DNA of 64,000 nucleotides from an uncultured Candidatus Saccharibacteria bacterium (lineage in GTDB: Bacteria > Patescibacteriota > Minisyncoccia > Phycocordibacterales > UBA5272): the NCBI GenBank assembly GCA_964443675.1, contig CAYUDN010000002.1, positions 2,586 through 66,585 on the forward strand, in the 5' to 3' direction. Below the pieces are notes generated by a model, which saw nothing but the letters and a program-made list of their open reading frames with translations, was not told the origin of the DNA and searched no databases. The translations under genes were made by a program, and so were the position numbers. Positions 33,780 through 51,878 of this stretch are shown piece after piece; position 1 is the first letter of the stretch; every line of letters starts with the position of its first letter.

Positions 33780-33818
33780 TAACTGTAAGTAATCCACTCT
33801 TTTAAAAAGAATGGATGA

Positions 33819-34775
33819 GTGCCTATAGTCTTCTTGCGATATACTACAAAGTATATGGAACCAAATGCAATGACAACTAAAAAAGCGCTTCTTGTGGTCG
33901 GGGTGCTTATCTTTTTATTACTTACAACAATGGTGATTCCTGCCAAATACATTGGGGTTACCCCTCAAAAAACAACAGGGATTATTCTTTTGGATGATGG
34001 AGCGATTACCGCTTTAGCCAAAGACAAGAACCGTAACGGAAACCCTGATTGGAGAGATTTACTAAAAGATAACACAAATATCCAAGAACCTCTTACAGCC
34101 CAAACACCAATAGACCCCGCCACCCAAAAAGAACTTGATGACCCCAACAATCTCACCGCATCTTTCGCTAAGAACCTATATACTGCAGCCACCTATGCTA
34201 GCCAAAATGGTGGACTCACCGAAGATGAACAAGCAGCGCTTGCAAGTCAGTTAATTGAGGGGGAGGGTGCCAAAATAACTGTGAAGGTGTACACACTGAA
34301 GGATCTTCATCTTGTAAAGAACGAATCAGAAACATTCATCACTTCTTACGGTAACAATCTTGGCGTTCTCTACAAAAAAGCTGTTGATGAGAAACTTAAC
34401 TCGGACGATACCGTAATACTTAAAGCGTACACAACAAACCAAGACTCTTCTGTTTTGGAAGCGCTCGTAGTAAAAAAGAATAGTTTAGAGACAATGATTT
34501 CTAAACTTATCACTCTTGATGTACCGTACTCTGCAGCAATTTACCATCTTCGTATGCTAAACGAACTCTCAAAGTATAAAAGTGTTGTAGAAAATCTTTC
34601 CACAGCAGAAATCGATCCTATGCGCGCAGCAATAGCAACTAGAGAATATTTTCCGGCACTGAAAAGCGTGAATGGTTCTTTTATTGCAATTGTTGAGTAT
34701 TTTATTAACCAAAAGATCACCTTTACACCGAGCGATCCTGGTGCAATTCTTATGAAAGGGTATACTTCTAAATAA
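33819..34775 (+). CDS. Membrane-anchored hypothetical protein
   Basis: N-terminal TM (ALLVVGVLIFLLLTTMVIPA), then an extracytoplasmic domain. Confidence 0.4.
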   Translation: MPIVFLRYTTKYMEPNAMTTKKALLVVGVLIFLLLTTMVIPAKYIGVTPQKTTGIILLDDGAITALAKDKNRNGNPDWRDLLKDNTNIQEPLTAQTPIDPATQKELDDPNNLTASFAKNLYTAATYASQNGGLTEDEQAALASQLIEGEGAKITVKVYTLKDLHLVKNESETFITSYGNNLGVLYKKAVDEKLNSDDTVILKAYTTNQDSSVLEALVVKKNSLETMISKLITLDVPYSAAIYHLRMLNELSKYKSVVENLSTAEIDPMRAAIATREYFPALKSVNGSFIAIVEYFINQKITFTPSDPGAILMKGYTSK

Positions 34776-34784
34776 TACATCTGT

Positions 34785-36488
34785 ATGAAAAAATATTTAA
34801 ACGTCTTCCTTGTTTTAGGACTAATCTCTTCTTTCATAGGACAAGTTTTTGCATCTGGCGCGATTGCTGGAGCTACAGAAATTACCCAACTACTAAATAA
34901 CGGGGAGCTTCTTGGTGTCAACGTATCTTCTGGAGCAACAGCAATTTCTTCAAATATCTCTGCTGTGGATGCCACCATCGGAAGACCTCTTGTTACCATG
35001 ATGATAAACACCGCTCAACAAAAAGCAGCAAAAGATATTGTTAGTTGGGCAAACGGTGGTTTTAAGGGTGATCCTCTTATTATAAGTGACCCTGGTAAAT
35101 ATATTGGTGACGCAGCTCTCGCTCAAGTTAAGCTTGGATTAGGAAGCCTTCCAAAAAACAGCCCATATTCAGATAGTATTTTTAATAGCCTGGTCGGACA
35201 ATACAAAGACTCTGAAGATCTTGGTGCAAAAATAAACTCTATCACGCAATCAAATATTCCTTCCCTTGTCCAAAAAAACTTTTGTACTGATAGCTCTCTT
35301 ACAGAAAACGCGGTAGCATCTCTTGGGGGAGATATGGCTTCTATTGATCCGAAAGCTCTTCAACAAAAAAAGAAGGAGTTAAAAGACTATGCTTGTAACG
35401 GAAACCCGAACACTGATCAGAAGCTTGCTGCACGTCTGACTGATATTCAATCACAAAACGCTTCTGTTGGTGGATGGGACTCCTGGCTTGCAAAGACCGG
35501 TGGAGATAACGCATACACCAAAAAAGTTCTTGCGACTAACGAAATCAATGCAAAAGCAGCAGCAGAAAAAGATAAGGCACAAAAAGAAATCTACCAAGGA
35601 GCAGGTCCTGTAAGTCAAACCAAATGTCTTAAAACTTCTACAGTAACCAAAACAGGCGAAACTCCTATTTGTGAACCTGGACAAAAGGTCACCCTAACAC
35701 CAGGTAAAACTGTTGCAAGCTCACTTGATAGATCGGCAAACTCTGGTATTGACCGTCTTACTCGTCTCCAAGGAGAGGGTCTTGCTGCGTTTATAATGGA
35801 AAAAGCTATGTCCAGCTTAGTAAGCGGACTTAACTCTGCTTTTAATGGAAGTCAAGGTGGATCATCTTCTGGTTCTAACAACAACCAAACAACTACTGTA
35901 ACCTCTAAATCTCCTCCGACTCAAGACCTTGCTGGAGACGAAGACACAAAAACAGCAATAACTTCTCCTGTTTTTAAAATGCTTGAAAATTCTCAAAGCA
36001 CTTTTGACAGCTTGGAGTCTGTTGATACAGAGTACCTAGCAGAAGTGAACACCTATGCCACAAAGATAGCATCAGGAAAGTCTTGTTATGATTCTCTCAT
36101 CGAAAACAAAACAGTTACTCCTGATAACCCGCAAGTTGTTGCAGCATACTCATTTTATGAAGACCGTCAAAATAGAATCGATATTGTTAAAAGCGCTCTC
36201 ACTCAAGAATTAAAAAAGTTAGCAAATGCAACACAGCTTATAACCACTACAAAAACAAAGCTCAAAGAAACCAACTCTTCTGAAGAAATTAACACCCTTT
36301 ATAACAACTACACTAAAGAAGTAGAAAAAGGGGAGTATCCAACGATAGAGACTTTAGGAAAAAGAAAGGGGGAGTACTCAAAAACAAAAGCGGATATTAA
36401 AAACGATAAAGATGTCGACACTTATCAAACAACTTGTAACCAGATGGGAGGTAATAGTAATGATAATGGCGGGGCAGGTGGAGCATAG
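34785..36488 (+). CDS. Secreted protein (567 aa), first gene of the T4SS-like cluster
   Basis: Signal peptide MKKYLNVFLVLGLISSFIGQVFASG; Cys pairs; no recognised catalytic motif. Confidence 0.5.
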   Translation: MKKYLNVFLVLGLISSFIGQVFASGAIAGATEITQLLNNGELLGVNVSSGATAISSNISAVDATIGRPLVTMMINTAQQKAAKDIVSWANGGFKGDPLIISDPGKYIGDAALAQVKLGLGSLPKNSPYSDSIFNSLVGQYKDSEDLGAKINSITQSNIPSLVQKNFCTDSSLTENAVASLGGDMASIDPKALQQKKKELKDYACNGNPNTDQKLAARLTDIQSQNASVGGWDSWLAKTGGDNAYTKKVLATNEINAKAAAEKDKAQKEIYQGAGPVSQTKCLKTSTVTKTGETPICEPGQKVTLTPGKTVASSLDRSANSGIDRLTRLQGEGLAAFIMEKAMSSLVSGLNSAFNGSQGGSSSGSNNNQTTTVTSKSPPTQDLAGDEDTKTAITSPVFKMLENSQSTFDSLESVDTEYLAEVNTYATKIASGKSCYDSLIENKTVTPDNPQVVAAYSFYEDRQNRIDIVKSALTQELKKLANATQLITTTKTKLKETNSSEEINTLYNNYTKEVEKGEYPTIETLGKRKGEYSKTKADIKNDKDVDTYQTTCNQMGGNSNDNGGAGGA

Positions 36489-36499
36489 GGTAAGACAAT

Positions 36500-36600
36500 A
36501 GATAACAGACACGCTTCGCTAAAGATAAAAGAAAGGGTGGCCGCTTCGCGGCCACCCTTTCTGTATTCTATAAGCGAAGCGATCTGTTGTCTATAGCGAA
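36500..36600. repeat. Intergenic palindromic element copy 1 (nested hairpins around GAAAGGGTGGCCGCTTCGCGGCCACCCTTTC)
   Basis: The central 13-bp perfect GC-rich stem is at 36531-36561. The outer pairing CGCTTCGCT / AGCGAAGCG is at 36512-36520 and 36573-36581. Related copies lie at 40455-40575 and 41085-41165. Confidence 0.65.
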
Positions 36601-36711
36601 GCATGTTTGTTGTCTGTATTCTATATATCTACGCTCTATTATTTCTTTTTCCGTCTTTCACCCAACACCTGCTACCTATTACCTATCACCTATTCATGCT
36701 ACACTACAATC

Positions 36712-39648
36712 ATGCGAAAATTCTCGGTTTTTCTTTGTATCATAACTCTTTCTATCGCTCTTTTTGGTGGGTTTTCTACAATAAAAACATCTGGTGTTGT
36801 TTCAGCTCAAACAAGAGAAAACTTAAATAAATCTACTTATACACACGAAATCGCACAACAACAAGTTCTAAACTTGTTTGATTCTTACCAAAATAATGCA
36901 ATAAACTTTTTAATAGAACAGACAAAAGGATTTACTTCGCAACAAGGAATGGCGGAGGCGAAGGCGCTTGAGGAACTCAAACCAAAACTTACTGCGCTTA
37001 TTTTACAATCTAAAAATATTTATTTAGAAAACTATGATAAATCCTTACCGCCTTGGACAGCACAAATAAACGCAATATCAAAATTACAAGCTTTTTTTGG
37101 TCCCGGTTTTGCAAATTTACGAGTAACATCTAAAGCTGCTGGACTTCTTGCGGTCACTGAAACCTTTAAAGGTAACATAAGGACTGAATTAGAGATAGCG
37201 AAAGCCGTAGAAAGAGGGGAAGGAAGTGGAAACCTAACTTCAAGCACAACTTCTGTAGAGAATGCTGCGAAAACAGTTGCTGCTATTAAAGAAAAATCCG
37301 ATAAAGGAAAATGTACTTTTTGGAACTGGACCATCTCTGATTGTATTTCTGAAGGAGTAACTTGGATTATTAAAGTTGTTTTCCTTCAAATCGCCGGATA
37401 TCTTGTATGGCTCACCGCCAACATGTTCAACTACGCCATGCAATTCGGGGTGCTTGAATTTGCAAAATGGGCACCTAATACTCTTTATCCAATATGGATG
37501 ATAGTAAGGCAAACCATTTCCTTGGTCTTACTTTTTATTGGTATCTATGTGGGGATTTTGTATATCACTGGAGATAACCGTGGTAATTTTGAGCGTTATC
37601 TTCCTTGGTTTGTTATCTTTGCTTTATTTGTTAACTTCTCCTACCCTCTTACAAGAACAGCTATTGATATTTCTAATATCGTAACACTCAAAATGTATGC
37701 AGCAACAATGGGAGAACAAGCGTTATCTGCTAGTATTACCTCCAAAGATACTGCGGGTTTTTTGATCCTACAACGACTCGGTCTTGATAATCTTATTACA
37801 AGCGCAACAGCAGACAGTGCATCAAAAGCGGGAACGAATCTCTATAATTCTATAGACTCTATTCCTGGTGCACTTATTGCGGTAGTGTTTGTGTTCTATA
37901 CCGCATATGTCTTTTTTATGGTAACAGCACTTCTTGTTATGAGAACTGTTGCTCTTGTGTTTATTACCATCGCCTCTCCAATACTTCTTATTGATTCTGT
38001 TATTCCTCTTCTTGGTGATAAAGCAAAAACTGTTCGAGGATTGTTTGTTTCACAACTTTTTGTGGCTCCAGTGTTTGTTATTTTACTTTCGATAACTCTT
38101 AGTTTTATGCAGGTCTTTAGTACACTTAACACTTCATTAACAGGAGCAGCAAAAGGTTCCGGGGAAAGCTCAATAGTTACCTTCTTCAATATCTTGATCA
38201 TGCTCGTAATGCTCACTATTACAGTAAAAGTAACAAAAAGTACCGCCGGCTCTCTTGGGGAACAAGCAACGGAATGGATGGGAAAGGTTGGAGGGTTTGC
38301 AACAGGGGGTGTTGGGGCGCTTGGCCGACAAACACTTGGAAGAGCGGCTGCCAAGTTACGTGACAGCAAGTGGGTAGAAAGGAATCAGAATTCGTTTATT
38401 GGAAGACGAGCGTACGACCTTAGTAACTCCGTTGCGAAGAGTAGCTTTGATCTTCGTAACTCTTCTGTGGTTGCAAAAGGTGCTGGTATGCTTGGTTCAC
38501 AAGGTGGACTCTTTAAGGGTGGAATGGGGCAGGGCGCAAAAACAAACTTTGATGACACTTCCAAAAAACGACAAGAAAAAATCGATGCACGTCTTACAAG
38601 AATCCAAACAAGACATGAGCGCGACGAATATGAAAAGGATGACAAAGGAAAAATTGTCTATGATGCAAACGGCCTTCCAAAAATGAAACACAGAAAGGGG
38701 GATGTTGATCAAGCTGGTGTTGAAGCACGAGACCGTTATGTAGAAAACAAGGGTTCACTTTTTGGTCTTAGTGGTCTCACTGCAAAACAAAAAGAGGAAA
38801 TGGATCAAAAACTCATCGATCAAAAAGAAAAAGAGAGGATGGAAGAATATGGAAAACTAAAAACAAAAGAACAGAAAGCAGCTTACATCGCCAACCTTTC
38901 TCAAGAACTAGAAAAAATAAAAAAAACAAAAGGAGAAGAAAACCTTACTTCTGTTGATGCACGAACTGTCGTAAGTGTACTTCAAAAACTTACCAAACAA
39001 GAAAAAGACAAGCTTGATTCTGGGGCTGCTTACCGTGAAGCGTATAACGAATACAAAAACCTAGAAGACCTTGGGGATGGTGGCAGAAAGATGCGAGAAT
39101 TCTTTGGCAACCAACCAAAAGAAGTGCAAGATTACATTCTTGCAAAAGATCATGGTGAAGCGTTAAAAGATAACGAAAAAATAACAAAACAAAACGAAGA
39201 CAAGGCTTACAGAGAAGCAACTCTACAAAACCAACGAGATGCGGTACAAGCACAAAGAGAATCAACAGAAGTACAAAGAAAGCTCACTGAGGCGCTTAAT
39301 AATAAACAAAACGAGGAAGCAGGAGGAACAACACCTTCTGATAAAGACACAAGAAGGGACAACCCTAACTTCGATACAAGTGGAATGACCTTAGAAACAG
39401 AACGTGCTGCGGAAGCGCGTGTTAGTGGCAAAAAAGAGGAAGAACCTGTTGGAAAACCTGTAAGCTTTGCTTCTACTTCTTCTGGTGGATATGGTGCAAC
39501 GACAGTTACTTTTACCCCACCACAAACTTTTGCTTCACGAATGCAAAAACGAGGAGGCCAGGGGTCGCCTTCGACAGTAACAACTACCACTCCTCCAAAA
39601 AATAATCCTAATACAGAGGCGGAACCGGTAGAGGAGGAAGTTGTGTAG
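36712..39648 (+). CDS. VirB6/TrbL-like polytopic membrane protein with a long charged C-terminal tail
   Basis: Signal peptide, N-terminal extracytoplasmic domain, cluster of about 6-7 TM helices (aa ~240-560), then K/E/Q-rich tail. Architecture and position next to VirB3/VirB4 fit Gram-positive VirB6 analogues. Start taken at ATG 36712. Confidence 0.5.
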   Translation: MRKFSVFLCIITLSIALFGGFSTIKTSGVVSAQTRENLNKSTYTHEIAQQQVLNLFDSYQNNAINFLIEQTKGFTSQQGMAEAKALEELKPKLTALILQSKNIYLENYDKSLPPWTAQINAISKLQAFFGPGFANLRVTSKAAGLLAVTETFKGNIRTELEIAKAVERGEGSGNLTSSTTSVENAAKTVAAIKEKSDKGKCTFWNWTISDCISEGVTWIIKVVFLQIAGYLVWLTANMFNYAMQFGVLEFAKWAPNTLYPIWMIVRQTISLVLLFIGIYVGILYITGDNRGNFERYLPWFVIFALFVNFSYPLTRTAIDISNIVTLKMYAATMGEQALSASITSKDTAGFLILQRLGLDNLITSATADSASKAGTNLYNSIDSIPGALIAVVFVFYTAYVFFMVTALLVMRTVALVFITIASPILLIDSVIPLLGDKAKTVRGLFVSQLFVAPVFVILLSITLSFMQVFSTLNTSLTGAAKGSGESSIVTFFNILIMLVMLTITVKVTKSTAGSLGEQATEWMGKVGGFATGGVGALGRQTLGRAAAKLRDSKWVERNQNSFIGRRAYDLSNSVAKSSFDLRNSSVVAKGAGMLGSQGGLFKGGMGQGAKTNFDDTSKKRQEKIDARLTRIQTRHERDEYEKDDKGKIVYDANGLPKMKHRKGDVDQAGVEARDRYVENKGSLFGLSGLTAKQKEEMDQKLIDQKEKERMEEYGKLKTKEQKAAYIANLSQELEKIKKTKGEENLTSVDARTVVSVLQKLTKQEKDKLDSGAAYREAYNEYKNLEDLGDGGRKMREFFGNQPKEVQDYILAKDHGEALKDNEKITKQNEDKAYREATLQNQRDAVQAQRESTEVQRKLTEALNNKQNEEAGGTTPSDKDTRRDNPNFDTSGMTLETERAAEARVSGKKEEEPVGKPVSFASTSSGGYGATTVTFTPPQTFASRMQKRGGQGSPSTVTTTTPPKNNPNTEAEPVEEEVV

Positions 39649-39690
39649 TGTTTTGTGTACAATTGTGAGCGGTACGTTATACTTACTCTT

Positions 39691-40437
39691 ATGGATACTC
39701 CTTCCTATATTGCTAAAAATACTGAGGAACTTTTTGACAAAGCTCCTAGTTATATACAAAACCTTATCCTTAACGGAGAAGTTGACGCTGTTGTGCTTAC
39801 TCTTGCAAACAACTACAAGCTAACTGTTACAGAACAAGCAAAACTTTCAGATATTATTAGTTTTATTTTGATTGGAGCAATAGAGCCTGGTAACGTTGTA
39901 GAAGCACTACAAGATATGGTTGAAACAACTCCAGAAACAGCACTTCATATCGCAGAAGACCTAGAACATTCTATCTTAGAAAAAGCACGTCTTTCTCTTT
40001 TTAAACCACAAGGTGATGTAAAAGTACTTGAGTATCAAGGAGAAAAAACAAAAGATGAACTACGAAAAGAAATTCTTGATACTACTAAACGTGACTCTGG
40101 CCTTAAGAATAACCAAGCAACGCCTAACCCAAGCGCAAAAAAAACAACAGTCATTGCTCCAGGGTCACGCTCCCAACTTCTCGAACAACTTCAAGTGCTT
40201 AGCTCTATCCCTAACGATGAAGAAATCGCTGCACGTCTTTCCCATATTCAAGAACAAATAGAAACCATAAAAAAACAAGAGGAGGATAATAGTCTTAATT
40301 CACAAATAGCCCTCAAAAGCTTTATGTTTGGAGAAAAAGGTAAAGAAATTGCAGACCCAACAATCAAAAGAGCTACCTACAGTGTTGCACCAACACATTA
40401 TAATGTTGATCCTTACAGAGAAATAGCAGAAGAGTAA
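39691..40437 (+). CDS. Hypothetical cytoplasmic protein in the T4SS-like cluster
   Basis: ORF with Met at 39691 (track start 39655 overlaps the VirB6-like stop). Confidence 0.4.
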   Translation: MDTPSYIAKNTEELFDKAPSYIQNLILNGEVDAVVLTLANNYKLTVTEQAKLSDIISFILIGAIEPGNVVEALQDMVETTPETALHIAEDLEHSILEKARLSLFKPQGDVKVLEYQGEKTKDELRKEILDTTKRDSGLKNNQATPNPSAKKTTVIAPGSRSQLLEQLQVLSSIPNDEEIAARLSHIQEQIETIKKQEEDNSLNSQIALKSFMFGEKGKEIADPTIKRATYSVAPTHYNVDPYREIAEE

Positions 40438-40454: not shown

Positions 40455-40575
40455 GCTTCGCTATTAGACAACAGATGAAAGACTCGCTTCTCTAAAGAGC
40501 ACAGATAAAGGATGACCGCTTCGCGGCCACCCTATGTATTTGTCTGTAGTCTGTATTCTATTAGCGAAGTAAGTC
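40455..40575. repeat. Intergenic palindromic element copy 2 (degenerate: GGATGACCGCTTCGCGGCCACCC)
   Basis: ACGCTTCGCTATTAGACAACAGA ... GGATGACCGCTTCGCGGCCACCC ... TATTCTATTAGCGAAG. Two mismatches in the 5' half of the stem relative to copies 1 and 3. Confidence 0.6.
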
Positions 40576-40632: not shown

Positions 40633-41058
40633 ATGCAATTTCGAGTACCACAATTCATTGATATTGAAGATAAAGTAATCGGACCTTTAACTCTAAAGCA
40701 GTTTGGGTACACTTTAGGTGCAGGAGGTTTCTCATTCCTTATTTGGACCTTTATCCCTATTCATTTTTTGGCGGTTATTTTTATTATTCCAGTAGCAGGA
40801 CTCTTTCTTGCTCTTGCTTTTGTGCAATTTAATAACAGGCCTTTTGGTGCTCTTCTTGAAAGCGCTTTCTCTTATTTTACTAGTGCAAAAATATACACAT
40901 GGAAACAACCTGAACCAGAAAAAATGGAAACTTCTGTTGATCACGTGATCGCATCCACACAAAAAGAAATGATTATAGAAAAAACAAATAGGGATAGAAT
41001 ACATGACATTTCTCTTGGTCTTGATGTGTTCGAAAAAAGTAATGCAAAAGAAGAGTAG
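40633..41058 (+). CDS. VirB3/PrgI-like small membrane protein
   Basis: 141 aa. N-terminal FIDIEDKVIGPLTLKQFGY followed by two TM helices. Position immediately upstream of VirB4. Confidence 0.45.
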   Translation: MQFRVPQFIDIEDKVIGPLTLKQFGYTLGAGGFSFLIWTFIPIHFLAVIFIIPVAGLFLALAFVQFNNRPFGALLESAFSYFTSAKIYTWKQPEPEKMETSVDHVIASTQKEMIIEKTNRDRIHDISLGLDVFEKSNAKEE

Positions 41059-41084: not shown

Positions 41085-41165
41085 ACAGACAACAGAATAC
41101 AGACAAATACACAGGGTGGCCGCTTCGCGGCCACCCTGTGTATTCTGTAAGCGAAGCGGTCTTTT
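41085..41165. repeat. Intergenic palindromic element copy 3 (CACAGGGTGGCCGCTTCGCGGCCACCCTGTG)
   Basis: Perfect 13-bp stem at 41110-41140, followed by GTATTCTGTAAGCGAAGCG as in copy 1. Confidence 0.65.
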
Positions 41166-41216: not shown

Positions 41217-41858
41217 TTGTATACTACAACAAGTATGGCACAAGGAGCATCAAGTCAACAATTCGTACCAATAGAACGTGTTCGTGATGGGGTAGTCGTC
41301 TTAAAAACCGGAGAACTTCGTTCGGTTCTTATTACCAACTCTCTTAACCTTGGACTAAAAAGTGAAGACGAGCAACAGGCGGTACTTGTTCAGTTCCAAA
41401 ACTTTCTCAACTCTCTTGATTTTCCTGTTCAATTTTTTATTGAATCAAGAAAACTTAACATAAAACCTTATATAGAAATGCTTCAAGAAAGAAGTAAGGA
41501 GGTAAAAGAGGATCTTCTTAAAATTCAAATACATGAGTACATGGGATTTATTACCAAGTTTACCGAGGAAAGCAATATTATGACAAAACACTTTTTTATT
41601 GTTGTTCCTTACTTCAACCCTTCTGCACAAGACATTTCTCCTACTTCTGTGTTTTCTGGAACACTCAAAAACAATATGGGTAAAAGTGACGTTTTTGAAA
41701 CAGCAAGAACACAACTAGAGCAAAGAACTCTCACGGTAATACAAGGACTTTCTCGTTTTGGTATACGAGCACAACGTCTTGGTACAGAGGAAGTTATAGA
41801 GCTTTTTTATAAACTTTTTAATCCAAGCGAAGGTACACATAATGCACCTAAAGTATAA
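41217..41858 (+). CDS. VirB4/TrbE N-terminal domain, separated from the ATPase part by a single in-frame TAA
   Basis: VVLKTGELRSVLITNSLNLGLKSEDEQQAVLVQFQNFLNSLDFPVQFFIE resembles the CagE/TrbE/VirB4 N-terminal domain. Same reading frame as 41862-43688, with TAA at 41856-41858. Confidence 0.7.
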   Translation: MYTTTSMAQGASSQQFVPIERVRDGVVVLKTGELRSVLITNSLNLGLKSEDEQQAVLVQFQNFLNSLDFPVQFFIESRKLNIKPYIEMLQERSKEVKEDLLKIQIHEYMGFITKFTEESNIMTKHFFIVVPYFNPSAQDISPTSVFSGTLKNNMGKSDVFETARTQLEQRTLTVIQGLSRFGIRAQRLGTEEVIELFYKLFNPSEGTHNAPKV

Positions 41859-41861
41859 TAT

Positions 41862-43688
41862 ATGGGACTCTTTGATTTTTTATCACCAAAAACAACAACA
41901 CCATCAGCTTCTCCTGTAACTCCCGTTCTTCCTGAGCAGGTGTACAAAATCGCAGAAATGCAATTAAAGGATATTATTGCACCAAGCGCTCTTGAAATAC
42001 AATCAAAATCTCTTAACCTTGGCACTACTATTGTTCGTTCTTTTTTTGTTATCTCGTATCCTCGTTTTCTTACCGATAGCTGGCTAAGTCCTATAATTAA
42101 CTTGGATAAAGTTTTTGATATAGCTATTCATGTTACCCCACTTAACACAGGGGAGGTTATGAAAACTTTTCAACGTAAAGTTGCAGAAGTAGAAAGCCAG
42201 ATCATGTCTAGAGACGAAAAAGGTCTTGTTCGTGACCCTTCTTTAGATGTTGCGTATCAAGACCTTGAAGATCTTCGTGACGGACTTATTCAAGCGCAAG
42301 AAAAAATGTTTGAAGTTTCTTTATACATAACTCTCTATGGAACAACTAACGAAGAGCTTGATAAAGCTGAAAATGAAATAAAAAATATTCTCGAAAGTAG
42401 ACTTGTATATGTAAAACCAGCCCTTTTCCAACAAGACACAACATTTCTCTCCACACTTCCTCTTGGTGTAGATACTGTTCAAATAAAAAACAAACTTAAC
42501 ACTTCACCACTTTCTTCTTTCTTTCCGTTTGTTTCTTTTGATCTTTCATCTGATAGGGGTATTTTGTACGGACTAAACCGCCACAACGGAAGTCTTATTC
42601 TTTTTGATCGATTCTCTCTTGAAAACTATAACTCTATAGTGTTCGCAAAGTCGGGTTCTGGAAAAAGCTACTTCACTAAACTAGAAATCTTACGTACACT
42701 CATGTTCGACACAGAGGTAATCATCATCGACCCTGAACGTGAGTACGAGTTCCTTGCAGAATCTGTTGGTGGTCGATATTTTGACATCTCTTTGGTCGGT
42801 GAACACCACATTAACCCATTTGATCTTCCTCACCCAACAGAAGATGAATCACCTTCTGAGGTGCTTCGTTCAAATATTGTAAACCTTGTAGGACTCTTCC
42901 GTGTCATGCTTGGAGGTCTTACCCCTGAAGAAGATGCAATTATTGATCAAGCTATTACCGAAACGTACGCACTCAAAGATATTAATGGGGATACAGACTT
43001 CACACAACTCGAACCACCCCTTCTTTCTGATTTTGAAATGGTGCTTACTGGTATAGACGGCTCAGAAAGTCTTGTTCAAAGACTAAGCAAATACACCAAA
43101 GGTACTTGGTCTGGATTTCTTAACCAGCCATCTAATGTTGATATCAATAAAAAACTTGTTTGTTTTTCTATTCGAGACATGGAAGATGAACTTAAGCCTG
43201 TTGCAATGTATCTTATTACTCACTTTATTTGGAACGCAGTACGTAAAACATTACGTAAACGTCTTCTTGTGGTAGATGAAGCGTGGATCATGATGAAAAA
43301 TGACGACACAGCATCATTCCTTTTTGGTCTCGCAAAACGTGGTCGTAAATATTATCTTGGACTTGCAACTATTACTCAAGACGTAGGAGACTTTCTTAAA
43401 TCTCCATACGGACTTCCAATTATTACCAACTCTTCTATTCAAATCCTTCTTAAACAATCTCCTTCTTCTATTGATATTGTTCAAAAAACCTTCAACTTAA
43501 CCGATGAAGAAAAGTTCCTCCTTCTAGAATCTGGAGTAGGGGAAGGAATTTTCTTTGCAGGTCTTAAACACGTAGCCATCAAAGTGGTTGCTTCTTATAC
43601 CGAAGACCAGATTATTACAAGTGATCCTTCACAACTCCTTAAGATTCAACAAATGAAAGACGAAGTTGCTCAGTCAAAATCAGTATGA
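41862..43688 (+). CDS. VirB4/TrbE-family type IV secretion ATPase (C-terminal ATPase portion)
   Basis: Walker A FAKSGSGKSYFTK, Walker B LLVVDEAWIMM, and C-terminal motifs typical of VirB4. Confidence 0.85.
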   Translation: MGLFDFLSPKTTTPSASPVTPVLPEQVYKIAEMQLKDIIAPSALEIQSKSLNLGTTIVRSFFVISYPRFLTDSWLSPIINLDKVFDIAIHVTPLNTGEVMKTFQRKVAEVESQIMSRDEKGLVRDPSLDVAYQDLEDLRDGLIQAQEKMFEVSLYITLYGTTNEELDKAENEIKNILESRLVYVKPALFQQDTTFLSTLPLGVDTVQIKNKLNTSPLSSFFPFVSFDLSSDRGILYGLNRHNGSLILFDRFSLENYNSIVFAKSGSGKSYFTKLEILRTLMFDTEVIIIDPEREYEFLAESVGGRYFDISLVGEHHINPFDLPHPTEDESPSEVLRSNIVNLVGLFRVMLGGLTPEEDAIIDQAITETYALKDINGDTDFTQLEPPLLSDFEMVLTGIDGSESLVQRLSKYTKGTWSGFLNQPSNVDINKKLVCFSIRDMEDELKPVAMYLITHFIWNAVRKTLRKRLLVVDEAWIMMKNDDTASFLFGLAKRGRKYYLGLATITQDVGDFLKSPYGLPIITNSSIQILLKQSPSSIDIVQKTFNLTDEEKFLLLESGVGEGIFFAGLKHVAIKVVASYTEDQIITSDPSQLLKIQQMKDEVAQSKSV

Positions 43689-44656
43689 AAATAAAAAAAA
43701 AATTACTTTTTGTTTTTTTAACCACCTCAACTTCTTTTCTTTTTGTTTTTGCTCAAATATCATCAACAATATCATTATCACCAGAAAACCCAGAACCAAA
43801 TAGTACTGTAGAACTCACTCTTGAAAGTTACTCCTTTGACACAGGAACAGCTATGATTACTTGGAAAGTAAACAATAAGATTGTTGCGCAAGGGCAGGGT
43901 GTTGATTCTTACTCACTACCAACAGGTTCTGTTGGTCAATCTACAAAAGTTACCGTGAGCGCAATAACAGGGGACGGTAGTGCAATAGAACAAGAAGTAG
44001 TAGTTACTCCGTCTTCTGTTTCTCTTTTATACGAAGCACCAAAAAGTTATACACCTCTTTTATATAAAGGAAGATCTCTTCCTGGTGACGGAGCTCTTTT
44101 TACTGTTACCGCCTTTCCTCAAATAAGTGAAAATAATACTATTGTTCCACCTTCTTCTTTAGCATACACCTGGTATCTAAATGACTCCATAATGCAAAGT
44201 TACTCTGGGGTAGGTAAACAGTCTGCAGAACTTCGTATTGATTACTTAAGATCAAAAAATACTGTACGTGTTATTGTTCGTAGTCAAAAAGGAAATATTG
44301 CTTCAAAAACAATTACTGTACAACCACATGAACCAATGCCTCTTCTTTATCTTTATGATCCGATTTTTGGTTCCATGTTTACACAACTTGTAGGAAAACG
44401 TTTCGAAACAATAAAAGATTTTACTCTATCTCTTGAACCTTTTTATGTAACACAGGAAGATGAGGGTGACTCATCGGAATATACATGGTTTTTGGATGGA
44501 CTACTTTCTACACCAAGTGATGGGAGGGTTCTTGGGTTCCACCCAAAAGAAAATAGTTACGGAATAAAAAATTTAACTATTAAAGTGTATGGTGCTGATA
44601 GAAGACTTCAACAAACAGAATTAGAAACTGAGATTCTTTTTGATACAAGAAAATAA
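43685..44656 (+). CDS. Secreted beta-rich protein, hypothetical T4SS-associated
   Basis: Signal peptide MKIKKKLLFVFLTTSTSFLFVFAQ. Start overlaps the VirB4 stop (ATGA). Confidence 0.5.
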   Translation: MKIKKKLLFVFLTTSTSFLFVFAQISSTISLSPENPEPNSTVELTLESYSFDTGTAMITWKVNNKIVAQGQGVDSYSLPTGSVGQSTKVTVSAITGDGSAIEQEVVVTPSSVSLLYEAPKSYTPLLYKGRSLPGDGALFTVTAFPQISENNTIVPPSSLAYTWYLNDSIMQSYSGVGKQSAELRIDYLRSKNTVRVIVRSQKGNIASKTITVQPHEPMPLLYLYDPIFGSMFTQLVGKRFETIKDFTLSLEPFYVTQEDEGDSSEYTWFLDGLLSTPSDGRVLGFHPKENSYGIKNLTIKVYGADRRLQQTELETEILFDTRK

Positions 44657-44670
44657 CACTTTATATCTTT

Positions 44671-45495
44671 ATGATAAACGTTTCTTATACAGCCCTCGAA
44701 CAATCTTCACTCACCACACTAGGAATACAGTCAGTTTCTTTTAATAGTGGTAATACTTCTTTCTTTTCTGTTATTAGTTTTTTAATGATGCTTTCTTTTA
44801 TTGCGGTTGTTGGTGTTGCTTCTATCATGATAGTAAAAGGGGGAATGTTGCGTATGAAGGCTTCGGAAGAGTCAATACGTTCTTCTAACGAAGTGTTTAG
44901 ACGTGTGGTATTTGGTGTTCTTGGTGTTTTTAGTTTGTTTATTATTATTACCACTATTAATAGTGGGTTAATTACTGGAGATATTGACTTGGGTAAGTTA
45001 AGGGTGGGGTCGTCAGTCGGAACACCATCTACTGCGACTAAAGAAGCTGCTCAACCTCCAGCAAAAGCCGCAAATGCACCGAGCACAGGTTCAGCAAGTT
45101 GGACAAAAGCAATTCAGCAAGACCCAGAAATAAGAGCGCAGCTAAAAAATAACTCCATCTCTGTTAACAAACCAGCATGCACGAGTGAAGGAGCTTCTAG
45201 TTGTACAACTGTTGGAGGGTTACATAAAGACACAATAGATATGCTTATTTCTTTAAGGAAATCTTGTAGCGGAGAAATAGAAATAACAGGGGGAACAGAA
45301 AATGGACACAGGTCTCACGGTATTGATAAAACACCTGTTGATCTTAGTATAAAGGATGGAACACTGAATGCTTGTATTGAAAAGTTTTCAACCGGTCCAA
45401 ATGTTGGAACTTGGTGTAAAAGAACCTTTACCTCTTTTGGATATATTTTTTGTGACGAGAATAGTGCAACACCGCACTGGCATGTGTATAAGTAA
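44671..45495 (+). CDS. Membrane-anchored (two-TM N-terminal module) protein with a C-terminal putative peptidoglycan peptidase-like domain
   Basis: The N-terminal 110 aa are identical to the N-terminus of the 46833 gene. The C-terminus has GG...SH...D and HWH, reminiscent of VanY/M15-type zinc peptidases (weak). Confidence 0.5.
   Translation: MINVSYTALEQSSLTTLGIQSVSFNSGNTSFFSVISFLMMLSFIAVVGVASIMIVKGGMLRMKASEESIRSSNEVFRRVVFGVLGVFSLFIIITTINSGLITGDIDLGKLRVGSSVGTPSTATKEAAQPPAKAANAPSTGSASWTKAIQQDPEIRAQLKNNSISVNKPACTSEGASSCTTVGGLHKDTIDMLISLRKSCSGEIEITGGTENGHRSHGIDKTPVDLSIKDGTLNACIEKFSTGPNVGTWCKRTFTSFGYIFCDENSATPHWHVYK
44691..45011. repeat. 321-bp direct repeat copy A (identical, one mismatch, to 46847-47167)
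   Basis: Nucleotide-level identity covering the shared N-terminal module of two genes. Confidence 0.85.
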
Positions 45496-45535
45496 CAACA
45501 TTACAGCTATATAATAACCTGCTATACTTACTAGT

Positions 45536-46831
45536 ATGGAAAGTTCTAGTAATAAAAGGATTCTTATTTTGGTTGGTTTTACTCTTTTTTTTGTTATCAT
45601 TGTTCTCGTTTGGTATTTTTTCTATGCAAAACCAGTAATAGACCCAACAAACAACACCACAAGAGATGTAAAGAAAGTTAAAGATCTACCTCCTGGTTTT
45701 CAGTTTATAGAAAAAATCTGGAAAGGTGATCAAACCACAACAACAAAAACAGAAATCATAGATCCTCTCAGTAAACCACTTATTCATGTATGGGATCGTG
45801 GAGCAACAGGAATGTACTTCACCTCCATTCCAATACTTCAAGAAATTAACGCCACAACAACAGAAGGTACAACAACAATTACTGTAAAGAAAACAATTCA
45901 CGCAACATCAAGCGTTCTTATGTTTGTGGACACATTAACAGGGTATGTGTATGGATATGTATTAGATACAGGGAAAATATTCCAAATTACCAACACTTCT
46001 CTTCCTGGAATATCTGATGCGTACATTTGGAACAGTGGTAGAAAAATAATTCTACGTTATATAGATCAAGAAAAAAATAATATTGTCGGAGTTATTGCAA
46101 CTATTGGGACTATTAATCAAAACACAGAACCTTTACCTTTACAAAATATCAAATACCTTAACTCAGAAGTTACTTCTGTTGCGGTTAATAAAACAAAAAC
46201 AGAAGCATCATATATGGTAAGCACAGAAAAAGGAAGTTCTGTGTATACCACAGACGGCGACACTTCTCGTTTTGTTGTTTCTTCTCCTTTTAAAGAATGG
46301 GATCTTTCTTATGGTGGTAATACACTTTACGTAACACCAAAACCTTCTGCGTATGTAGAAGGAAGTACTTTTTCTCTTCCGTATTTTACCTCTGAAATAA
46401 ACAATAAAACAGGTCTTCTGTCTAACCCTGGTGTTTTTGGTGTACTGCTTAGTAGTATGTGGACAGATGACGGGTTACGTACTTTCTTTTCTTCTCATGG
46501 GAATATTTCTGTGCTTCCAATAAAAACACTTGCTACTAAATGTGTTTGGGGTCGCACCTCGTTTGTTGTATGCGCAGTACCAAGAGAACTTCCTGGATAC
46601 ACAGAAGGTCTTCCTGATGATTGGTATCAAGGAAGATACTCTTTTTCTGATGATCTTTTTATTGTTAACCAAAACAATAATGAAAAGTACATGTTATATT
46701 CTTTCTCACAAGAGGATGGAGATTTTGATATTTCTTCTATAGAAACAAATATCGATAACACATTGTATAGTTTTATTAATCAAACAGATCAAAATCTCTG
46801 GCTTCTTAACTCTAACTTACTTGGTGACTAA
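45536..46831 (+). CDS. N-terminally anchored extracytoplasmic protein, hypothetical
   Basis: TM anchor ILILVGFTLFFVIIVLVWYFF; T/N-rich extracellular domain. Confidence 0.45.
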   Translation: MESSSNKRILILVGFTLFFVIIVLVWYFFYAKPVIDPTNNTTRDVKKVKDLPPGFQFIEKIWKGDQTTTTKTEIIDPLSKPLIHVWDRGATGMYFTSIPILQEINATTTEGTTTITVKKTIHATSSVLMFVDTLTGYVYGYVLDTGKIFQITNTSLPGISDAYIWNSGRKIILRYIDQEKNNIVGVIATIGTINQNTEPLPLQNIKYLNSEVTSVAVNKTKTEASYMVSTEKGSSVYTTDGDTSRFVVSSPFKEWDLSYGGNTLYVTPKPSAYVEGSTFSLPYFTSEINNKTGLLSNPGVFGVLLSSMWTDDGLRTFFSSHGNISVLPIKTLATKCVWGRTSFVVCAVPRELPGYTEGLPDDWYQGRYSFSDDLFIVNQNNNEKYMLYSFSQEDGDFDISSIETNIDNTLYSFINQTDQNLWLLNSNLLGD

Positions 46832-46832
46832 A

Positions 46833-47816
46833 ATGATTGAATACAAAGCCCTCGAACAATCTTCACTCACCACACTAGGAATACAGTCAGTTTCTTTTAA
46901 TAGTGGTAATACTTCTTTCTTTTCTGTTATTAGTTTTTTAATGATGCTTTCTTTTATTGCGGTTGTTGGTGTTGCTTCTATCATGATAGTAAAAGGGGGA
47001 ATGTTGCGTATGAAGGCTTCGGAAGAGTCAATACGTTCTTCTAACGAAGTGTTTAGACGTGTGGTATTTGGTGTTCTTGGTGTTTTTAGTTTGTTTATTA
47101 TTATTACCACTATTAATAGTGGGTTAATTACTGGAGATATTGATTTGGGTAAGTTAAGGGTGGGGTCTGGTGATGCTATAACAACAAACAACCTCACCAC
47201 TAAAGAGGTAACAACTTCTTCCAAATCTACCTCTGGAGCAGTTAATGCAGGGTGTCAGAGCAAAGAAATAGTAATTCAAAATATTCAAAACAATGATGCG
47301 TGTAAAGGGGTAAGCTGTTCTGCGTTATTTGGTTGTAATTATTCTTCCTATTTAGCAACCATAGAAAAATATACATCTGGTGATCAAGAGTTAAGAAAAA
47401 TGGCAATTGTAACACTTTGTAAAGAATCAAAAGGTGTACTAACAGCAAATAATAAAAACCCTGACGGAACCTATGATTGTGGTGTTATGCAAATCAACCA
47501 AAAAGATCCTTGTCCTGCTTCGTATGATGTAGATGCTAATATTCAACAAGGAATTAATAAACTACGTTCTCTTAAAAATAATACAAACCAGACATATCCT
47601 GGTTTTCCACGGTGGGGAGGTGTTTTTGCTTCATATAATTGCTGTAGTAATGGAACAGCACCGAACAGTGCAAGTAATGATTGCAACACATCTTCTGGTT
47701 TTCCTGGAAGTGTTCCTAAATGGGGTTGTCCTATTAATCCTGGGGATGGACAATTTAATATGTGCACCGTAAAAAATTACACCTGTGACCTTGTAAAATG
47801 TATGGAGCAGTTATAG
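46833..47816 (+). CDS. Membrane-anchored lytic transglycosylase (VirB1-like SLT domain) sharing its N-terminal module with the 44671 gene
   Basis: SLT family-1 signature: catalytic ES in CKESKG and GVMQIN downstream. N-terminal two-TM module identical to the 44671 protein. ATG at 46833 (track start 46821 is TTG). Confidence 0.6.
   Translation: MIEYKALEQSSLTTLGIQSVSFNSGNTSFFSVISFLMMLSFIAVVGVASIMIVKGGMLRMKASEESIRSSNEVFRRVVFGVLGVFSLFIIITTINSGLITGDIDLGKLRVGSGDAITTNNLTTKEVTTSSKSTSGAVNAGCQSKEIVIQNIQNNDACKGVSCSALFGCNYSSYLATIEKYTSGDQELRKMAIVTLCKESKGVLTANNKNPDGTYDCGVMQINQKDPCPASYDVDANIQQGINKLRSLKNNTNQTYPGFPRWGGVFASYNCCSNGTAPNSASNDCNTSSGFPGSVPKWGCPINPGDGQFNMCTVKNYTCDLVKCMEQL
46847..47167. repeat. 321-bp direct repeat copy B
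   Basis: See copy A at 44691-45011. Confidence 0.85.
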
Positions 47817-48530
47817 CTATCTGAGATGTGCTAATTTGTTCTTCATATACACATCAAGAACATAACTTATTATATTACTCACTGTCCAGTAAAGTGCTAG
47901 TGCAGCGGGAAGGAAGAGTGCTGAAATAGTTAAAATAGCAGGAAGCACATACACCATCTGAACTTTCATAGATTTCATAAAGTGATCCTGGAAAGATTCC
48001 TCTTTTCCTTCTGTCTTCGAACCTATATCAACTGTTTGACGCTTTGCAAGCATGAACGCTGAAACACCAGACAAAATAGCAATGATGGTATTTTTTTGAG
48101 TAACATCAAAAAGACCAAACGCATGAGTATGTAGTGTTTCAGGGAAACTAACAAAAGAATATATTGACTGTGGGTCATTAAATAACCCTTTAGAAAACAC
48201 AAAGTAAAGTGCGAAAAATATTGGTATTTGTAACACCACTACAAAAATACTAGAAAAAGGATTAATGCTATTTTTTTTATATATCTCCACCATTTGTTTA
48301 GAAGCAAGGGCTGGATCCTTTTTTTGCACTTCTTTTATTTTTTCAAACTCTGGTTGTATTTTCTTCATCATGTACTGTGTACGAAGCGCTGACAAATTAA
48401 GAGGAAGAAGTATTCCTTTTACAATAAGAGTAACCAGTACAATAGCGGTACCAATATCATGAAGAGGGACCACTGTAAGGACAATAACAATAAGATTATA
48501 AATTGGTTCGTAGAAAAAAGTATGGAACAT
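47817..48530 (-). CDS. yidC: Membrane protein insertase YidC/Oxa1 (short form)
   Basis: Multi-TM protein with the conserved TM1/loop region (IVLVTLIVKGILLPLNL...KIQPEFEKIKE). Lies in the rpmH-rnpA-yidC arrangement. Confidence 0.85.
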   Translation of the reverse strand: MFHTFFYEPIYNLIVIVLTVVPLHDIGTAIVLVTLIVKGILLPLNLSALRTQYMMKKIQPEFEKIKEVQKKDPALASKQMVEIYKKNSINPFSSIFVVVLQIPIFFALYFVFSKGLFNDPQSIYSFVSFPETLHTHAFGLFDVTQKNTIIAILSGVSAFMLAKRQTVDIGSKTEGKEESFQDHFMKSMKVQMVYVLPAILTISALFLPAALALYWTVSNIISYVLDVYMKNKLAHLR

Positions 48531-49126: not shown

Positions 49127-50464
49127 ATGGACTACTCACAACTTTGGAATAGTGCTTTATCTCAGATCGAGATAGAACTTTCTCGAGTTAATTTTAATAC
49201 ATGGTTCAAAAACACAAGAATCATTGACTATAAAGAAGGGGAGGTAACTATTGGTGTTCCTAATGAGTTCGTAAAGGATTGGCTTAATCAAAAATATCAC
49301 AAATTTATTCTTCGTATTTTACGCACCATACACGAAGGTGTTCGTTCTGTTGTGTTTACTGTCGTCAAACCAGAAACCTTGCAGAAAAAATCTCAAACTA
49401 TTTCTATAGTAGGACAACCACTTCCTCTTAATGATCTTTATATTAATAAAGATGACGGCCTTAACCCACGATACACCTTTGAAAATTTCATTGTTGGCTC
49501 TTTTAACGAAGTTGCTTACGCTTGTTCACAAGCAGTAATTAATGGACTTGGTATTATTTATAACCCTCTCTTTATTTATGGAAACACCGGGCTTGGAAAA
49601 ACTCACCTTCTTCAAGCAGTAGGGAATACAATAAAGAAAAAATATCCTGAACGAAAAATTTTCTATACCTCTCTTGAGAAGTACTACATGGATTATGTAA
49701 ACGCTACAAATCTTAATAAAATAAATAGCTTTAAAGAAAAATATCGTAAATTTGATGTTTTTATAATGGATGATATTCAGTTTATTAATGGAAAAGAAAG
49801 AACACAAGATGAATTATTCCATCTTTTTAACTCTCTTTATGAGATGAATAAACAGATTATCTTTTCTTCAGATAAACACCCTAATCTTATTCAAGGACTT
49901 GAGGATCGTCTTAGATCACGTTTTAATCACGGAATGATTGTTGACGTGAATATCCCTTCCATGGAATCAAGACTTGCTATTCTTCAAATAAAAACAAAAG
50001 AATATCGAGAAAAAATTCCACACGAAGTATTGCAATATATCGCTGAGTCAATTCAAGGTAACATTCGTGAACTAGAAGGAGTTATGACTTCTATCCTTGG
50101 ACATATTCAAGTAAAACAACAAGTAGTCACCCTTCTTGATGTAAAAAACCTTCTCAAAAACTCAGTACGTGCTAAGAAAAGTATTTCTATTCCTGAAATA
50201 GTAAAGATTATTTCTGATTATTACCATATTCCTGATGTATATATTTACAACAAAACAAGACGAAAGGATGTAGTAAAACCACGACAAATTGTAATGTACA
50301 TCTTGCGTGAAGATTTTGATATCTCATACCCAATGATTGGAGACAGATTAGGAGGAAGAGACCACACCACAGTAATACACTCGTATGAAAAAATTAAAGG
50401 GATGGTTAAAGAAAACCCACAACTTAGTAGAGAAATAGAAGACATTAGAGCAATGTTGGTGTAA
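49127..50464 (+). CDS. dnaA: Chromosomal replication initiator DnaA
   Basis: AAA+ Walker A NPLFIYGNTGLGKTHLL, sensor motifs, and C-terminal DNA-binding domain (...VMYILREDFDISYPMIGDRLGGRDHTTV). Confidence 0.95.
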   Translation: MDYSQLWNSALSQIEIELSRVNFNTWFKNTRIIDYKEGEVTIGVPNEFVKDWLNQKYHKFILRILRTIHEGVRSVVFTVVKPETLQKKSQTISIVGQPLPLNDLYINKDDGLNPRYTFENFIVGSFNEVAYACSQAVINGLGIIYNPLFIYGNTGLGKTHLLQAVGNTIKKKYPERKIFYTSLEKYYMDYVNATNLNKINSFKEKYRKFDVFIMDDIQFINGKERTQDELFHLFNSLYEMNKQIIFSSDKHPNLIQGLEDRLRSRFNHGMIVDVNIPSMESRLAILQIKTKEYREKIPHEVLQYIAESIQGNIRELEGVMTSILGHIQVKQQVVTLLDVKNLLKNSVRAKKSISIPEIVKIISDYYHIPDVYIYNKTRRKDVVKPRQIVMYILREDFDISYPMIGDRLGGRDHTTVIHSYEKIKGMVKENPQLSREIEDIRAMLV

Positions 50465-50789: not shown

Positions 50790-51878
50790 ATGAAATTCGA
50801 ATGCAAAGGAGAGGTATTTATTAAAGCGGTACAGCAAGTAGCACGTGCACGTAGTAAAACACAGTCACAACAATCACTTCAAGATATACATTTAGAAATA
50901 ACAAACCATCTTCTCACTCTTCGTGCAACTAACTTGGAATTATTTTGCGAAAAGAGTATTCCTGTAAAAGGGGTTGTGAACGGAGCTTGTTTACTGCAAG
51001 GAGAAACATTACTCCGTATTCTTTCTACCTTTAGTACAAGAGATACAACATTTACTTGCGAGATTGTTGGAGGTGTTTTTGTTATTACTACTGAAAAAGG
51101 TGTTATTGAGATCAAAACAACCCCTTACGAAGATTTTCCAACACTTCCATCACAAGGTGAACTTATTGGAACACTTCCAAAAGAAACAATTATCTCTCTT
51201 ATTAAAGAAGTTTCTTTTTGTTCCGCGACAACAGATATTAAGCCAGAAATTTCTTCTGTGTTTGTGTACACAAAGGATACCTCTATTATTAGTGTTTCAA
51301 CTGATTCATATCGTTTAGCAGAAAAGGTTGTTCCTAATGAAAAAGATCTTGATTTCTCGTTTCTTTTACCAGAAAAGCATATAGGGGAAGTTCTTCAAAT
51401 TATTAACGAAGAAGAGGGTGATATAACTCTTTCAAGAAGTAATAATATTGTAACGTTAACAGGACAAACAGTAACATTATCTATTCATACTATTACAGGT
51501 CATTTCCCTGATTATAAACAACTTTTTCCAAAAGAATTTACAACCACAGTAACTATACCAAAAGAGGATCTACAAAAAGCACTCACTCTAACAACATTTT
51601 TTAATGATCAGTATTCTGAAGTGGAGTGTATGTTTACAGGGGATGTATGTACAGTACATAGTAAAAGTGAAAAAGTTGGACAAGTTACCCACTCTGTTTC
51701 TATTACTAAAGAGGGTGAAGATATTGAAGTGAAGTATAATAACCGTTTTTTCTTAGAGGTTTTTCCTTATATAGAAGGGGACATGATTACCTGTTCATTT
51801 ACAACATCGAACCGTCCAATGTTTATACAAGGCAATAAAGATATTACATTTACATATCTTTTAATGCCGCTTAGATAA
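50790..51878 (+). CDS. dnaN: DNA polymerase III beta subunit (sliding clamp)
   Basis: 362 aa, three-domain clamp; typical N-terminal MKFECKGEVFIKAVQQV. Confidence 0.95.
   Translation: MKFECKGEVFIKAVQQVARARSKTQSQQSLQDIHLEITNHLLTLRATNLELFCEKSIPVKGVVNGACLLQGETLLRILSTFSTRDTTFTCEIVGGVFVITTEKGVIEIKTTPYEDFPTLPSQGELIGTLPKETIISLIKEVSFCSATTDIKPEISSVFVYTKDTSIISVSTDSYRLAEKVVPNEKDLDFSFLLPEKHIGEVLQIINEEEGDITLSRSNNIVTLTGQTVTLSIHTITGHFPDYKQLFPKEFTTTVTIPKEDLQKALTLTTFFNDQYSEVECMFTGDVCTVHSKSEKVGQVTHSVSITKEGEDIEVKYNNRFFLEVFPYIEGDMITCSFTTSNRPMFIQGNKDITFTYLLMPLR

Follow-up and report, generated by a model that had tools for sequence, protein, structure and literature searches.

TrsD is the commonest component of type IV secretion systems (T4SSs) in Patescibacteria, with 2,272 homologues of which 1,664 are associated with virB4, and it is remotely homologous to the N-terminus of VirB4 (Quiñonero-Coronel et al., 2025, Microb Genom; PMC12102498). 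That study also lists the trsD homologue of Candidatus Southlakia epibionticum as essential and finds Patescibacteria T4SS clusters often near dnaA, dnaN and ksgA. For the remote homology we cite this source only; TrsD was not found by name in the main text of Guglielmini et al. (2014). Here we report on a trsD-virB4 pair within a 64,000-nucleotide (nt) stretch of DNA, which we call the window (GenBank assembly GCA_964443675.1, contig CAYUDN010000002.1, positions 2,586 to 66,585 of the forward strand; deposited as an uncultured Candidatus Saccharibacteria bacterium). A sequence-only reading of the window had described the pair as a virB4 gene interrupted by a stop codon. This was not borne out: the two parts are separate in 78 of 78 comparator species, with variable spacers and mostly in different frames. 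We are confident that trsD and virB4 are genuinely two genes in the window, distinct since ancient times, and part of a chromosomal monoderm-type (MPF_FATA-like) T4SS in a Patescibacteria (Paceibacteria) genome, with coupled expression and assembly in trans as the likely mechanism.

Set beside the pair described from Patescibacteria (the candidate phyla radiation, CPR), the window shows no substantive difference. It has the same order PrgI/VirB3-TrsD-VirB4, a stand-alone TrsD of ~210 amino acids (aa), a chromosomal position near dnaA, dnaN and ksgA and a Paceibacteria-type genome; its in-frame TAA-TAT-ATG is a lineage-specific accident. The pair also resembles TrsD/TraD and TrsE/TraE of Gram-positive systems (pGO1/pSK41/pIP501 type, NCBIfam NF041427), in which a ~220-aa protein is encoded directly before a VirB4 of 620-670 aa. 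Identity to these plasmid proteins is 27-30% for TrsD (85-97% of its length) and 26% over 586 columns for VirB4. The Gram-positive systems are plasmid-borne conjugation machines with a relaxase, whereas the window has its system on the chromosome, close to the origin, and the window genes that were scanned included no relaxase. Single-chain VirB4 proteins (TrwK of R388, PDB 7O41 and 8RTB; the CD1110 family; VirB4 of a Mycoplasma integrative and conjugative element) are covered collinearly by the two window proteins. In contrast to them, the window has the first ~120-180 positions as a separate polypeptide, and identity to TrwK is ~17-18%.

Identity of the two proteins

The open reading frames (ORFs) at 41217-41858 and 41862-43688 of the forward strand lie in one frame (the coordinates 41217 and 41862 are each divisible by 3). 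The sole in-frame stop is a TAA at 41856-41858, followed by TAT at 41859-41861 and ATG at 41862, and there is none further up to 43688. This description, taken from the sequence-only reading, was confirmed. The TTG at 41217, which comes from a mechanical ORF call, is probably not the start in use, because the deposited 207-aa product and all orthologues begin at ATG 41235 (MAQGASSQQF…). The first gene, trsD, runs from that ATG to 41858 and encodes 207 aa; the second, virB4, encodes 608 aa and occupies 41862-43688, so that the trsD stop and a 3-nt spacer (41856-41861) stand directly before its ATG.

We searched for relatives of the first ORF with a word-indexed protein search and with an exhaustive search of 50%-identity representatives. 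The word-indexed search gave 3931 homologues, and the best 120 of them (71-100% identity) are all 202-218 aa long. Clustering at 50% gave 2141 representatives, 192 at E ≤ 1e-30, nearly all of them stand-alone proteins of ~200-250 aa. About 30 of 150 cluster representatives (e.g. P0139, P0151, P0164, P0178, P0240) carry C-terminal tails of 80-240 aa, which are low in complexity, rich in Pro, Ala, Glu and Gln, and without similarity to VirB4. We considered whether homologues of 280-440 aa could be truncated fusions and rejected this, as their extensions are such low-complexity tails without VirB4 or ATPase similarity.

The NCBIfam TrsD/TraD model (NF041427) matches the first ORF over positions 16-200 of 201 (E 5.8e-8) with 32.8 bits against a curated cut-off of 200. 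The ORF also matches the starts of profiles built on fused proteins, at positions 2-119 of 752 in the CD1110-family VirB4 model and at positions 103-233 in VirB4_plasma. Pfam PF26593 ('TraC-like') appears in the precomputed annotation of the exact 207-aa product and of all 120 best homologues. Our local Pfam scan, from a copy that does not hold the PF26593 model, gave only a sub-threshold PNK3P match. An AlphaFold2 (AF2) model of TrsD built from a 98-sequence alignment was confident, with a predicted local distance difference test score (pLDDT) of 88.8 and a predicted template modelling score (pTM) of 0.79. When this model was compared with the PDB using Foldseek, the 14 best matches were without exception to TrwK/VirB4 chains from the R388 T4SS (E from 1.5e-4 to 1.5e-3, at probability 1.00 and TMq 0.53-0.63), and later matches were noise. 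A sequence search of the PDB with TrsD, alone or as a 98-sequence profile, gave nothing meaningful, and TrwK was recovered by the fold search only.

The second ORF has the RecA-like C-terminal ATPase domain, with Walker A and Walker B motifs, by which VirB4 proteins are recognised. Walker A (GSGKS, residues 265-269) is encoded at 42654-42668 and Walker B (VVDEAW, from residue 470) at 43269-43286. NCBIfam NF045971 (VirB4-like, CD1110 family) matches at 374.5 bits against a cut-off of 325 (E 1e-111), from residue 31 of the ORF and over positions 183-733 of 752; VirB4_plasma matches over positions 292-893 of 894. Residues 230-587 align to PDB 4ag5, the C-terminal domain of TpsVirB4 from Thermoanaerobacter (E 4.8e-41), and also to TrwK residues 445-741. 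Pfam adds P-loop_TraG (3e-25), AAA_10, DUF87 and TraC_F_IV (residues 124-202). A full N-terminal domain is not found in this 608-aa polypeptide; the profile positions it is missing are matched by the 207-aa ORF upstream. Together the two proteins map collinearly and without overlap on the fused profiles, at 2-119 and then 183-733 in the CD1110 model and at 103-233 and then 292-893 in VirB4_plasma.

These coordinates also indicate where the split falls. The sequence-only reading had put it between the N-terminal domain and the ATPase domain, which proved wrong. It appears to lie inside the N-terminal domain, because the second ORF keeps ~230-250 residues upstream of Walker A, and these match the distal N-terminal region of VirB4/TraC. 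By this mapping TrsD would correspond to the first ~120-180 residues of the N-terminal domain in single-chain VirB4, and the VirB4 of the window would be a T4SS ATPase without that segment.

The junction in related genomes

We compared 80 loci with relatives of the first ORF (TrsD identity 54-78%) in species-representative genomes, each from a distinct GTDB species. All are Patescibacteria metagenome-assembled genomes (MAGs), labelled mostly Paceibacterota, Nomurabacteria, Parcubacteria or "Saccharibacteria", and 78 of the loci are informative. In every one of these 78, trsD and virB4 are separate and the first ORF ends at an equivalent position. The comparison of orthologues as fused or split had been named beforehand as a test able to refute a lesion, and it returned genes uniformly split at the same site. 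Counting the window, the trsD stop is TAA in 74 of 79 loci. The downstream ORF has 599-612 aa and starts at a homologous ATG (query residue 1 in 73/78), after which the VirB4 N-terminus is conserved as MGLFDFL, MALLDFL and similar.

The distance between the genes is short and variable. Of 79 loci, 73 have a spacer of 1-14 nt (modes 4 and 5 nt), and the other six (L063, L066, L076 and L080, also L060 and L069) have one of 30-491 nt. The two genes share a frame in 17 of the 78 loci and are out of frame in 61, where chance would give 26 in frame. Because spacer length and frame vary freely among relatives, we consider the in-frame arrangement incidental, and the shared frame and 3-nt spacer of the window are best seen as accidents of this lineage.

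The sequence-only reading had left four explanations side by side: a genuine split into two separately translated parts, a recent nonsense mutation, a sequencing error and stop-codon readthrough. The first of these stands, given that all 78 informative loci are split, and the other three do not. A nonsense mutation, in a T4SS that is being pseudogenised, would account for two ORFs in one frame with a single stop between them, which is the sole support for it in the window, and single-chain VirB4 proteins of ~750-800 aa are indeed known from other lineages (the CD1110 family and a fusion in Colwellbacteria described below). Yet none of the 78 comparators has the stop at another position, 61 of them are out of frame, stand-alone homologues of ~210 aa number in the thousands, the downstream ATG and the MGLFDFL N-terminus are conserved, and the adjoining T4SS genes are intact. 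Selection argues in the same direction. In pairwise codon comparisons the proportion of nonsynonymous differences (pN) was 0.13-0.32 for trsD and 0.05-0.19 for virB4, while that of synonymous differences (pS) was ~0.7, so that synonymous change is saturated. We take both ORFs to be functional genes under strong purifying selection because pN is far under this saturated pS. A nonsense mutation is therefore extremely improbable.

A false stop made by a sequencing or assembly error is less probable still, to the point of being negligible. It is an a priori possibility in any metagenome-assembled genome and nothing more, whereas 78 other genomes share this architecture and the junction is identical (…AAAGTATAATATATGGGA…) in three independent Logan assemblies from different Sequence Read Archive (SRA) runs. 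One of the three has a nearby synonymous single-nucleotide polymorphism (SNP), and the assemblies therefore do not derive from the same reads.

The same split is found on Firmicutes plasmids. A tblastn search against plasmids matched 274 records, mostly conjugative Firmicutes plasmids, on which the matched gene often carries the annotation "TrsD/TraD family conjugative transfer protein", with 27-30% identity over 85-97% of the query; annotated trsD genes are matched at 30% identity (E 2e-6). In pWCFS103 of L. plantarum, the gene for a 672-aa VirB4-type ATPase begins 11 nt after trsD (219 aa), in a different frame. On a plasmid from Pontibacillus, the TrsD homologue and a CD1110-family VirB4 overlap by 11 nt. 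Pairwise alignments with the Firmicutes plasmid proteins begin and end at equivalent positions for both halves, and we therefore regard the split as the same one. A stand-alone protein of ~200 aa directly upstream of virB4 is thus common to the window, all 78 informative loci and the Firmicutes plasmids.

Only one fused TrsD-VirB4 form (P0202, 797 aa) occurs among the top 150 cluster representatives. This natural fusion is present in three Candidatus Colwellbacteria MAGs (P0202, P0271 and P0272; MBI3088895.1, MBI2506916.1), which belong to the same phylum as the window. It is 43% identical to TrsD and 54% to VirB4, and residues 4-210 of P0202 align with TrsD. It differs from the window in being one ORF and in having a linker in place of the first ~34 VirB4 residues.

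Expression of the pair

A Shine-Dalgarno core precedes only 3 of the 44 long ORFs of the window. By contrast with an expectation of ~2%, 19 of the 44 genes have a −10-like hexamer (TATACT, TACACT or TATAAT) that ends 6-14 nt before the ATG; examples are at 41220-41225, 36697-36702 and 45523-45528. The first of these is a TATACT on the forward strand, a putative promoter that ends 9 nt upstream of the trsD ATG, and 63 of 80 orthologous loci have a comparable hexamer whose end lies 6-13 nt before trsD. The many close −10-like boxes and the few Shine-Dalgarno cores suggest that the mRNAs of this Paceibacteria genome may as a rule be leaderless or near-leaderless. A short search of the literature gave no directly relevant description of leaderless translation in Patescibacteria. 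The −10-only motif came from a custom analysis. A sigma-70 consensus scan that required both −35 and −10 elements found no promoter at trsD or virB4, and it found fewer sites than in shuffled sequence.

At virB4 the signals are different. A Shine-Dalgarno sequence is absent, as is a −10 box at the correct spacing, and a TATAAT at 41854-41859 ends 2 nt before the ATG. The sequence-only reading had seen no obvious ribosome-binding site (RBS) before 41862, and we agree. It had also expected that a stable split would come with separate RBSs, an expectation that is inapplicable here with Shine-Dalgarno cores in 3 of 44 genes. In the orthologous loci, the region before virB4 showed no −10-like box at a consistent place. 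The RNA around the junction (41800-41930) is predicted to be unstructured (z +0.81).

These features bear on programmed readthrough or recoding of the TAA, which would produce a fused TrsD-VirB4 of ~815 aa. The ORFs are in frame here with TAA-TAT alone between them, and the Colwellbacteria fusion indicates that a fused protein is functionally tolerable. However, the frame is not conserved, since 17 of 78 in-frame loci falls short of the one in three that chance predicts, the stop has no stimulatory RNA structure downstream of it, and the spacer codon shows no conservation. A TAA with T after it ranks with the stop signals at which bacteria terminate most efficiently, and the TAA-T context in the window is not a leaky one. 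In addition, the Colwellbacteria fusion lacks ~34 residues from the beginning of the VirB4 ORF instead of reading through them. We consider readthrough very improbable.

Another explanation accepts that the pair is real and has virB4 translated independently, either from its own internal promoter or a leaderless start, or by direct binding of 70S or 30S ribosomes to an A/U-rich start region. The TATAAT just before the ATG could be read in its favour, as could a start region that is A/T-rich and unstructured, and the six loci with spacers of 30-491 nt imply expression without tight coupling. On the other hand, a TATAAT 2 nt from the ATG leaves too little room for transcription to start at or before that ATG, given that the other window hexamers end 6-14 nt upstream, and orthologues share no such box. 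Spacers are also sharply peaked at 1-7 nt, as is usual for coupled cistrons. Independent translation thus seems unlikely in the window, although the choice between coupled and independent translation of virB4 is the sole live uncertainty among the rival explanations.

The surrounding cluster

Upstream of trsD lies prgI (40633-41058, forward strand), which encodes a small VirB3-like membrane protein (Pfam PrgI PF12666, E 1e-8, 36 bits against a cut-off of 27). The order PrgI-TrsD-VirB4 recurs in independent contigs. A terminator-like scan and folding identified a GC-rich, perfect hairpin of 18-19 bp between prgI and trsD (41105-41145; ΔG −44.9 kcal/mol, z −8.1), which is terminator- or REP (repetitive extragenic palindromic)-like. 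It contains one of three copies of the GC-rich perfect palindrome GGTGGCCGCTTCGCGGCCACC (36536-36556, 40511-40531 and 41115-41135), where none would be expected by chance. One copy has 2 mismatches, and all lie in intergenic gaps of the T4SS cluster. The copies of GGTGGCCGCTTCGCGGCCACC could be REP-like elements or else terminators that lack a T-tract. Neither an Rfam scan nor a tRNA scan gave any match in the window, and no RNA element therefore explains the trsD-virB4 junction.

Downstream of virB4, the next gene of the operon (43685-44656, forward strand, taken from the ORF list) encodes 323 aa with weak Ig-like Pfam matches. Its start overlaps the virB4 stop as ATGA (43685-43688), another tightly coupled junction in the operon. 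The cluster contains further large ORFs at 32403-40437 and 43685-46831, of 458, 306, 567, 1013, 260, 323, 274 and 431 aa. None of these eight had a significant Pfam or NCBIfam match; the 567-aa product is weakly TrbJ-like and the 323-aa product only weakly Ig-like. Presumably they are VirB6-, VirB8- and pilin-like components too divergent for the Pfam and NCBIfam libraries. At the end of the cluster, an ORF on the forward strand (46833-47816) is tentatively assigned to a VirB1-like lytic transglycosylase (Pfam SLT, E 9.8e-4, 19.1 bits, which is under the cut-off of 21.3).

Beside the cluster are yidC (47817-48530, reverse strand; Pfam 60KD_IMP), dnaA (49127-50464; Bac_DnaA) and dnaN (50790-51878; DNA_pol3_beta), and on its other side a KsgA-type rRNA methyltransferase (31645-32439) belongs to the same origin-proximal neighbourhood. 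The T4SS is thus chromosomal and sits beside the yidC/dnaA/dnaN origin region, the origin-proximal arrangement described earlier (PMC12102498). VirB4, TrsD and PrgI/VirB3 encoded together near dnaA and dnaN are what marks a chromosomal T4SS of Patescibacteria derived from MPF_FATA, and all are present.

Discussion

The trsD-virB4 pair of Patescibacteria T4SSs is ordinary and already described (PMC12102498), and the T4SS in the window is intact. We propose the following mechanism for its two genes. The TATACT box 9 nt before the trsD ATG would give rise to a leaderless or near-leaderless bicistronic trsD-virB4 mRNA. Translation of virB4 could then proceed by termination-reinitiation (translational coupling) at the ATG a few nt past the trsD stop. 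We favour coupling because virB4 has no Shine-Dalgarno sequence and no correctly spaced −10 box, and termination-reinitiation in particular because the stop-start distance is so sharply peaked at 1-7 nt. At the protein level, TrsD would supply in trans the N-terminal subdomain that single-chain VirB4 proteins hold in cis. Most likely, TrsD and VirB4 combine into a single functional VirB4, with PrgI/VirB3 as its docking site at the membrane. The natural fusion in Colwellbacteria is consistent with a subdomain supplied in trans.

Several observations weigh against this account of two coupled genes whose products assemble. The match to the NCBIfam TrsD model falls far under that model's curated cut-off, and what places the protein in the family is therefore remote homology, fold, synteny and its PF26593 annotation in Pfam. 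The Foldseek output does not give the aligned TrwK residues, so that the correspondence of TrsD with the N-terminal domain comes from profile coordinates. Physical assembly of TrsD with VirB4, leaderless transcription and coupling are all features that we infer. Lastly, tight coupling is impossible in the six orthologous loci with long spacers, and virB4 must therefore be translatable independently in some lineages. Even so, we hold with confidence that trsD and virB4 are two genuine genes, separated long ago.

The correction has practical value, as automated and by-eye scans will repeatedly flag the trsD-virB4 pair of Patescibacteria as a broken virB4. The analysis also adds to the published description in two respects. 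The fold match between TrsD and TrwK, together with the collinear mapping on fused profiles, supports TrsD as the missing N-terminal subdomain of VirB4, provided in trans. Two further features, the −10 box conserved directly before trsD and the short distance from stop to start, suggest a mode of expression for the pair in a genome poor in Shine-Dalgarno sequences.

A more speculative reading, which we offer tentatively as a possibility, is that TrsD is a separately tunable subunit and more than a piece split off from VirB4. Leaderless trsD combined with reinitiation onto virB4 would set the TrsD:VirB4 ratio, and TrsD would act as a membrane- and PrgI-docking adaptor in trans; the long disordered tails that TrsD has acquired in many lineages may be part of the same picture. 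If this is true, the split would be a regulatory feature of an essential Patescibacteria T4SS, and not a neutral fission.

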